This document shows positions 19,212-21,337 of a stretch of 24,863 nt of DNA, piece by piece. The notes beneath the pieces were generated by a model, which worked only from the letters and a program-made list of their open reading frames with translations, searched no databases and was not told the DNA's origin. Position 1 is the stretch's first letter. The number at the start of each line of letters is the position of its first letter. The position numbers and the translations under genes are program-made. This DNA comes from Candidatus Aenigmatarchaeota archaeon (lineage in GTDB: Archaea > Aenigmatarchaeota > Aenigmatarchaeia > CG10238-14), in assembly GCA_044343545.1 (NCBI GenBank), contig JAWBZR010000010.1, positions 1 through 24,863 of the forward strand. Direction: 5' to 3'.

Positions 19212-19331
19212 TGGGGCTGCAGGGATTTGAACCCCGATGACCAGGTTTCTTCTCATCATCTGGAAATCAACGCTCCATCTACAAACCTTGATCTGGAGCC
19301 TGGCATAATAGCCTGGTTATATGACAGCCCC
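19212..19331 (-). tRNA. tRNA-Trp(CCA) with a 46-nt intron at 37/38 (19247-19292)
   Basis: Acceptor GGGGCTG/CAGCCCC-A, anticodon arm CCAGG-CTCCAG^A-CCTGG, T-arm CGGGG-TTCAAAT-CCCTG; relaxed bulge-helix-bulge; CCA end not encoded. Confidence 0.93.
19247..19292 (-). ncRNA. Putative intron-encoded C/D-box guide RNA for tRNA-Trp Cm34 (possibly also position 39)
   Basis: TGGAGC-G-TTGA: guide plus D-like box, with the +5 nt pairing to C34; perfect C box ATGATGA; AGGTTT-G-TAGA with the +5 nt pairing to C39. Confidence 0.6.
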
Positions 19332-19374
19332 TCAAAATATTTTTTTCTATTTACTCTTTAAAAAATAATTACAA

Positions 19375-21231: not shown

Positions 21232-21337
21232 AGCCTCGGATGGGACTTGAACCCATAACCCGCTGATCTCTCACAATCATCTTTTAATCTTAAGATCAGC
21301 TACAAGTCAGCTGCTCTACCAGTTGAGCTACCGAGGC
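21232..21337 (-). tRNA. tRNA-Thr(TGT) with a 33-nt intron at 37/38 (21268-21300)
   Basis: Acceptor GCCTCGG/CCGAGGC-T, D stem GCTC/GAGC, anticodon arm GCTGA-CTTGTA^A-TCAGC, T-arm ATGGG-TTCAAGT-CCCAT; central BHB helix CUUG/UGAG. Confidence 0.92.

Follow-up and report, generated by a model that had tools for sequence, protein, structure and literature searches.

Among archaeal tRNA introns, that of tRNA-Trp is known from Euryarchaeota as a guide RNA that is trans-acting in vitro (PMC2584109, PMC7994747, PMC4090602, PMC11408192). Reviews describe the Haloferax work as favouring trans action in vitro (PMC2584109, PMC4090602, PMC7994747), and one of them calls the Trp intron guide a unique case and states that what tRNA introns are for is not clearly settled (PMC4090602). 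Circles of the Trp intron are abundant in Thermococcus and in halophiles (PMC9014305, PMC12558985), and permuted C/D sRNAs are known as free molecules (PMC3491384, PMC6009581). Half guides and box-free guides are active in vitro (PMC7229835, PMC9670817), while the single-site archaeal guide of Hardin and Batey was active yet non-specific (PMC1635284). Reordered or single-kink guides in DPANN tRNA introns were not found in our literature search, which covered neither the primary papers on the Trp intron nor, from PMC2584109, Additional file 4; that file concerns guides in the Trp introns of at least 29 archaea and could include reduced forms. A full-text search returned no C box shared between two D boxes, no rotation series and no natural box-free stems.

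The stretch of DNA analysed here, hereafter the window, comprises 24,863 nt of a Candidatus Aenigmatarchaeota archaeon and represents contig C2 of a low-GC genome of 651 kb (G000). Its minus strand carries a tRNA-Trp(CCA) gene at 19331-19212, identified by ARAGORN run with introns, by an Rfam tRNA match and from the sequence; a tRNA search without intron mode gave no gene in the window. The gene lies beside a divergent gene of the geranylgeranyl reductase family, with alba and tfb downstream. A T/A-rich, TATA-like element seen in the sequence at 19357..19365 (minus strand), 26-34 nt upstream of the gene, is presumably its promoter, judging from the usual position of archaeal promoters. ARAGORN places a BHB intron of 46 nt at 37/38 (19247..19292, minus strand) between the 5' exon (19293..19331), whose anticodon arm G31-A36 occupies 19299-19294 with the predicted target C34 at 19296, and the 3' exon (19212..19246), with the predicted target C39 at 19245. 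The original prediction had described this intron as a minimal, rearranged C/D guide, and every element it listed was recovered in place on the minus strand by ARAGORN, Rfam and the sequence.

Read from its 5' end, all on the minus strand, the intron contains first the 5' strand of the outer BHB helix (19289..19291), in which intron bases 2-4 form three base pairs with bases 5-7 of the C box, as had been proposed; in the related genome G002 a C-G pair of this helix is replaced by U-A. The C39 guide (19283..19288) forms six of six Watson-Crick pairs with the last two intron bases and A38-U41, that is, with the 3' splice junction, and up to 10 bp are possible with one bulge. It precedes a D'-like box of the form NNGA (19278..19281, recognised from the sequence), the proposed partner of the single C box in the C39 fold, and its base -5 from this box lies opposite C39. 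The C34 guide follows at 19272..19277 with six of six Watson-Crick pairs to G31-A36, and its base -5 from the D box lies opposite C34, so that the predicted register holds for both guides, which are further backed by shuffling and comparison. The D box of the K-loop (19267..19270) is supported by D1:C6 covariation, treated below, although in the window itself D1:C6 is a mere G-U pair for both D boxes. The K-loop loop of 7 nt (19260..19266) can pair through 19265-19261, bases 28-32 of the intron, with the C34 guide over the initial five bases of the latter. The only C box (19253..19259, consensus RUGAUGA, from sequence and comparison) is situated 3' of both guides and is partly common to the outer BHB helix. 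Since nothing separates the D'-like box from the C34 guide (0 nt), C' is absent from the intron; both this and the location of the sole C box downstream of the D-like box agree with the original description. A degenerate C' box between D' and the C34 guide was considered and rejected, the space being 0 nt here and 0-4 nt in other two-D introns. The last six bases (19247..19252, ARAGORN numbering) provide the BHB central-helix strand and the 3' bulge and, together with C-box base 7, the 5-nt linker to the C39 target strand. With the central helix (three of four pairs, C34 at 19296 being mismatched with A at 19251), the outer helix, and EndA and RtcB encoded in the genome, the locus has the features of a BHB intron. 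C34 also faces A in most DPANN Trp introns, while the Thermococcus helix is perfect. This mismatch and the pairing between the loop and the C34 guide were absent from the original description. A 7-nt repeat of the 5' junction hints at a nested second intron; in relatives the loop is free to vary.

The nearest described counterpart is the euryarchaeal Trp-intron guide (Haloferax volcanii; Pyrococcus sR50), which shares the host intron and the predicted targets 34 and 39; the spacing from the 39 guide to D' in Thermococcus loci L072 and L095 equals that of the window, and the N+5 rule holds at both tRNA positions. However, the euryarchaeal order is C, guide39, D', C', guide34, D, whereas that of the window is guide39, D', guide34, D, C. 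The window guide has one C box, no C' and 6-bp duplexes in 46 nt, compared with about 10 bp in 62-102 nt. Neither the canonical terminal K-turn (C box 5', D box 3') nor an internal D'/C' pair between the guides is present, and the duplexes fall short of the usual 10-12 bp, with the exception that the 39 helix may reach 10 bp with a bulge. The Rfam model sR3 (RF01133) matched the canonical introns L064, L072 and L095; four named DPANN loci gave no match, nor did the window at E<=1. Other systems resemble parts of the design. In the free sRNA24 and sRNA26 of Nanoarchaeum equitans (PMC3491384) and sR56/sR57 of Pyrobaculum (PMC6009581), box D also stands upstream of box C and the guide order is permuted, but these RNAs are thought to need circularisation, whereas the D-loop-C motif of the window would already form in the precursor while it is linear, and one C' has been lost. 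In N. equitans, the intron within tRNA-Met yields a C/D-like RNA, again a DPANN tRNA intron with boxes C and D (PMC3491384); it measures 66 nt, and the excerpt of that paper gives it no target or single-K-loop design and does not call the other three introns guides. One kink is combined with one open guide, as here, in the halfmer and box-free guides obtained by engineering (Yang 2020, PMC7229835; Wang 2022, PMC9670817), where a plain 4-bp stem can replace the boxes, an arrangement that occurs naturally after the 39 guide in some relatives. They are nevertheless engineered or human, trans-acting and built on 8-12-bp duplexes, and the excerpts show none with a C box common to two D boxes. On sequence grounds, the Trp-intron element is a real and conserved variant that would work like a C/D guide, lies outside the bipartite class and was not found described.

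Because the elements are short, we considered whether they are chance motifs or a by-product of the BHB, an explanation that now seems scarcely credible. When intron bases 1-40 were dinucleotide-shuffled 100,000 times, with the last six fixed, single guides did appear, the C34 guide with NNGA 400 times (0.4%) and the C39 guide 1,181 times (1.2%). The C34 guide with the K-loop was obtained in 33 shuffles, both guides in one and all features in none (0/100,000). Joint chance, conservation and covariation over four DPANN phyla and the correspondence with the Thermococcus guide together refute it. Within the genus, all 60 of 60 cells of the three helices are paired across four distinct sequences. 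Two double changes occur, the first within the outer BHB helix and the second where the last intron base takes part in the C39 helix; the score was reached by 29 of 500 shuffles, four sequences being too few for significance alone.

The wider comparison drew on a scan of named genomes (at least 120 loci, chosen for having a C34 guide) and on pattern searches independent of any guide, which matched 93 of 201 genomes of the own phylum, 83/121 of Micrarchaeota, 64/151 of the Woesearchaeota phylum and 14/17 of Undinarchaeota. Non-matching genomes are possibly intronless, unassembled or variant, and some matches are false. Nearly all own-phylum matches and part of the Micrarchaeota and Woesearchaeota matches were examined as loci; unparsed rows were dropped (8 own-phylum, 4 Micrarchaeota, 10 Woesearchaeota-phylum and 3 Undinarchaeota). 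In a named Aenigmatarchaeota record (L129) the Trp intron differs from that of the window at 3/46 bases, from which the lineage is taken to be this DPANN phylum. The C34 guide with NNGA is present in 90 of the 92 distinct parsed own-phylum Trp introns, and in 82 of the 92 guide34-D is followed on its 3' side by a single C box. The same configuration was found in 37/46 and 10/11 distinct introns of the two other phylum sets and in 1/31 of Micrarchaeota, a sample that overweights guide-less forms (C boxes on both sides in 6 introns, no guide in 24; by eye, most rows outside the sample have D' and C' boxes together with a C34 guide). By comparison, C-like boxes precede the guide in all 64 distinct euryarchaeal introns. 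An apparent euryarchaeal exception (L052, in a record titled Methanosarcinales) was discarded, as its genome groups with the Woesearchaeota phylum sample. The prediction was to be abandoned if guides and boxes were not conserved among DPANN Trp introns; they are conserved and covary. C34 duplexes have a median length of 9 bp in Micrarchaeota, 6-7 bp in the other four of the five DPANN sets and 10 bp in Euryarchaeota.

The arrangements form a series. Thermococcales, Thermoplasmatota and Methanobacteria (the last without a 39 match) show the canonical order. Micrarchaeota loci L212-L215 have guide39-D'-C'-guide34-D-C (arrangement M), a rotation of it, and another rotation, guide34-D-C-guide39-stem (arrangement W), occurs in Woesearchaeota, Undinarchaeota and some own-phylum families, usually with a plain stem of 3-7 bp in place of D'/C'. 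The arrangement of the window (A) equals M without C' and was seen in 12 distinct introns from 13 genomes, seven genera and four families; its mirror, guide34-D-guide39-D'-C (A'; L289-L291, L294-L297), allows either D box to form a K-turn with the same C box. The remaining introns consist of guide34-D-loop-C alone, down to 19-27 nt, the C box overlapping the BHB strand. The term minimal therefore overstated the case, since the window intron is among the few with both guides and the relatives with 19-27-nt introns hold only the C34 half; the idea of a reduced C/D guide with one kink motif is supported by the comparison across DPANN. 'Permuted' is correct as a statement of order relative to the euryarchaeal guide. 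The order may have arisen by physical re-insertion of a circle or, equally possibly, by stepwise loss and gain of a C box, because in G439 and in Thermoproteota (G573, G524, G537) the order judged by eye is canonical and the terminal boxes have decayed. Among the 101 Thermoproteota and 81 Methanobacteriota genomes searched, inspection by eye gave no Trp intron with D ahead of C. Trp introns of Thermoproteota G573, G524, G537, G553 and G545 read guide39-D'-C'-guide34 and lack clear C/D boxes at their ends; these were reduced independently, with the canonical order preserved. Plain stems of 3-7 bp after the 39 guide were noted in L156, L159, L231, L237, L240, L241, L282-L288, L313, L314, L316, L321 and L326, with a linker of 5 nt (6 nt in two cases), and are natural counterparts of the engineered box-free guides.

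The kink motif has the tandem GA pairs typical of box C/D RNAs and a covarying flanking pair. D1:C6 is Watson-Crick in 117 of 156 DPANN motifs (T-A 57, C-G 33, A-T 27), against a mean of 52 and a maximum of 73 in shuffled sets. As kin among the 156 are not independent, relatedness inflates this count, yet the three pair types recur in several phyla, which argues that the kink is real.

Similar cassettes are present in other tRNA genes. Two kilobases from the Trp gene, the tRNA-Thr(UGU) gene (21337-21232, minus strand) has a 33-nt intron (21268..21300, minus strand) with a guide (21300-21293) aimed at U39 (21266), a D-like box (21291-21288) and a C box (21280-21274), all on the minus strand. 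This guide forms 8-9 bp with base -5 on U39 and a single K-loop; the design occurs in 11 relatives, in which U39:A and C39:G covary. The guide-D-loop-C cassette was likewise found in the Met (C16:15701-15820), Leu(CAA) (C13:2319-2435) and Cys (C18:34170-34295) introns of G000, with targets in their own tRNAs at Met C34, Leu(CAA) C34 (intron at 30/31) and Cys C39. A kink-anchored search with no guide specified gave matches in all 31 genomes searched; 60 regions and 30 loci were examined among the matches listed, with 124 further matches, and anticodons were assigned by eye. A Watson-Crick-closed kink was present in 64 of 69 parsed non-Trp intron genes. In 44 of these 64, base -5 of a guide with at least 6 Watson-Crick pairs falls on position 34 (29 introns) or 39 (15), compared with 80 of 3,765 cross pairings (2.1%) under the same register and pair criterion. 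Nineteen of the 20 register misses are introns of 56-84 nt (Ser-UGA, Ser-CGA, Arg-CCU, Thr-CGU) with the appearance of complete bipartite guides for other targets. In this set, mis-parsing affected three Leu rows, which were positive in a separate analysis. The register to 34 or 39 holds across eleven anticodon types.

Several long introns deserve separate mention. The tRNA-Ser(UGA) intron (62-84 nt) encodes a conserved bipartite C/D-like RNA in G000 (C1:91118-91266) and in L359, L403, L420 and L429. Its second spacer is a Shine-Dalgarno-like stretch, and we take it to be complementary to the 3' end of 16S rRNA; an rRNA landmark sought in G000 was not found. A 13-nt match of a Ser-intron spacer at C15:1107 was considered as SRP RNA and proved not to be it. 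Introns resembling whole C/D sRNAs without self-targets are those of L382, L399 and L411 (Ser-CGA), L389, L406 and L444 (Arg-CCU), and L381 and L397 (Thr-CGU); these long introns probably host rRNA guides. The only free-standing bipartite C/D-like sRNA matching the strict pattern in G000 lies on C9 (minus strand) near 2909. At C4:10664-10777 a tRNA-Ile gene was called with a TAT anticodon, which is unusual in archaea and occurs in N. equitans.

The proteins required by such an RNP are encoded in G000. L7Ae, Nop5 and fibrillarin, the set expected for a box C/D-type RNA, are all present along with EndA and RtcB; fibrillarin and Nop5, whose presence the original prediction had asked to be confirmed, are adjacent on C19, and Nop5 aligns over its full length to the Pyrococcus and Sulfolobus structures. 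Cassette-bearing genomes contain fibrillarin in 22/22 Micrarchaeota, 12/12 of the Woesearchaeota phylum and 4/4 Undinarchaeota. It was not found in 7/8 cassette-less Woesearchaeota-phylum genomes, and is kept in cassette-less Micrarchaeota (23/24) and Undinarchaeota (2/2). The seven (G484, G412, G458, G489, G462, G455, G413) have guide-less Trp introns. G226, whose assembly may be incomplete, has a full guide and gave no fibrillarin match. The cassette-less profile of the own phylum was dropped, because G027 has a cassette (L390) and the G159 match is doubtful. These distributions fit a dependence of the cassette on fibrillarin, and the seven genomes may represent one clade with a single loss. 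They bear on the notion that the K-loop binds L7Ae only for folding, splicing or intron stability, the antisense stretches being structural and leading to no methylation. The mutual exclusivity of the guide folds and the BHB would suit that notion, as would the ease with which guides can arise as inverted or duplicated pieces of the anticodon arm. We regard it as very improbable, given that base -5 is fixed on 34 or 39, known ribose-methylation sites, in eleven anticodon types, and that in one phylum the cassette is missing where fibrillarin is missing.

On balance we lean towards reading the intron as a rearranged box C/D methylation guide that would work inside the unspliced pre-tRNA, its C box being used by both D boxes. 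The elements, their conservation, covariation, register and reordering are established by sequence comparison; from these we infer the protein binding and the order of steps. Methylation of C34 (Cm34) by the intron guide is highly probable, action of the guide in cis is likely, and sharing of the C box for Cm39 is moderately probable. In a first fold (A), the C34 guide would pair back on the anticodon loop as a local hairpin, and the D box, loop and C box would form a K-loop recruiting L7Ae, Nop5 and fibrillarin for Cm34. In a second (B), the same C box would pair with the upstream D'-like box in a K-turn whose stem I hides the C34 guide, and the C39 guide would pair with the 3' splice junction 5 nt past the C box, leading to Cm39. 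The third (C) is the BHB; because it draws on a portion of the C box as well as on the same bases of the anticodon, splicing would occur only after the guide folds are released. Folding of the naked precursor gave the C34 helix a probability of 0.71-0.74. Constrained folds A, B and C reached -37.7, -40.0 and -34.5 kcal/mol, a spread of at most 5.5 kcal/mol, with kink energies and protein outside these values, and folds B and C had a probability of about 0 in the unconstrained ensemble of naked RNA without protein. A guide/loop hairpin of at least 5 bp occurs in 6/10 two-D and 10/45 one-D introns, and D' is kept without a stem I hairpin in G030, G054, G171 and G175; stem I was accordingly rejected as proof of fold B, not being specific to two-D introns. 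Complementarity between the loop of the K-loop and the C34 guide, present at 19265-19261 in the window, is also frequent in introns that lack D' (10/45 one-D introns); possibly it provides an anti-guide that frees the anticodon for splicing.

The C39 half is open to another explanation, in which the C34 half alone is active, with the C39 guide and the D'-like box left over from the loss of C' as a relic in decay. The C39 half with NNGA upstream persists in just 10 of 92 own-phylum introns and is lost in most of the phylum; moreover, there is no C' box, the D' box of the window is non-consensus, and fold B is unpopulated in naked RNA. A relic would hardly be expected, however, to track its target as this guide does. 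In four families it tracks target changes, matching no fewer than four distinct target sequences in which the two final bases of the intron are included. It shifts with the last intron bases between the window and G003/G004, in G171, and between L294 and L295, changes that would mismatch a spliced tRNA; in another family (L283-L288) the U39 target faces A at -5. As the guide covaries with the last intron bases, its target appears to be the unspliced precursor. The exact -5 register is also retained, as are the NNGA of D' in the 12 distinct two-D introns and a linker of 5 nt. The linker, taken as the distance to intron base n-1 from base 6 of the C box or from where a plain stem ends, was 5 nt in 29/40 C39-coupled Trp introns as scored, against 13/107 C34-only introns; after three rows with an overlapping C register were fixed and four misclassed rows with their own C' were removed, the former count became 32/36. 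In non-Trp 39-cassettes (Thr, Cys, Tyr) it was 5 nt in 13/13, compared with 4/24 34-cassettes, some boundaries being uncertain, and the G000 Cys cassette has a linker of 6 nt by eye. The 5-nt linker is also seen in 12/63 own-phylum C34-only introns, and the BHB alone forces at least 4 nt. All 12 distinct two-D introns show it if the full C box is taken for the measurement, and our main argument that the single C box serves D' is that the sole C box of form A obeys this linker. We therefore consider the relic explanation unlikely and retain the C box shared by both guides.

The original prediction placed the main activity after excision and circularisation. An excised circle, or another precursor, could indeed guide methylation in trans: the abundance of Trp-intron circles in Thermococcus and halophiles and the trans action favoured by reviews for Haloferax offer precedents, RtcB is present, and the circle would amount to a half guide whose closed spacer, at 17-18 nt, has a length that was active in vitro (PMC7229835). 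The duplexes are only 6 bp, though, and 8-bp substrates are poorly modified in trans (PMC9670817, PMC7229835). The C39 guide duplex of G030, G182 and G173 takes in exon bases C35-G37, which an excised circle would lose, so that action of the circle is disfavoured. Nor would the fixed linker be expected in trans, or the floor of 3-4 nt on the loop closed in cis by the C34 helix (2 nt in one case, 3 nt in three and 4 nt in 31). Because the C39 guide also tracks the last intron bases, circle action is not supported as the main mode. Trans guidance in general seems improbable, though a circle may still act in trans for the window's own intron. In three RNA runs of the same study, of each of which 3-5% was sampled, 0 reads mapped, a result that bears neither on expression nor on a circular form. 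Action in cis within the unspliced precursor remains the preferred reading.

More tentatively, one C box serving two D boxes in turn might make the pre-tRNA a self-timed switch through Cm34, Cm39 and splicing, within a DPANN-wide kit of cis guides that would comprise rotated full guides, half guides of 20-27 nt in many tRNA types and natural box-free stems of a kind known so far from engineering only. With five introns of this design in a single 0.65-Mb genome and further cases throughout DPANN, many introns acquire a possible function that can be tested. These guides escape the Rfam models used here. In vitro studies disagree on whether a single kink motif is enough for specific methylation (PMC1635284 versus PMC7229835), and the DPANN introns, short enough for transcription in full, would be natural test cases. 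If true, a C box common to two D boxes and plain stems in place of boxes would broaden the criteria for recognising and annotating guide RNAs.
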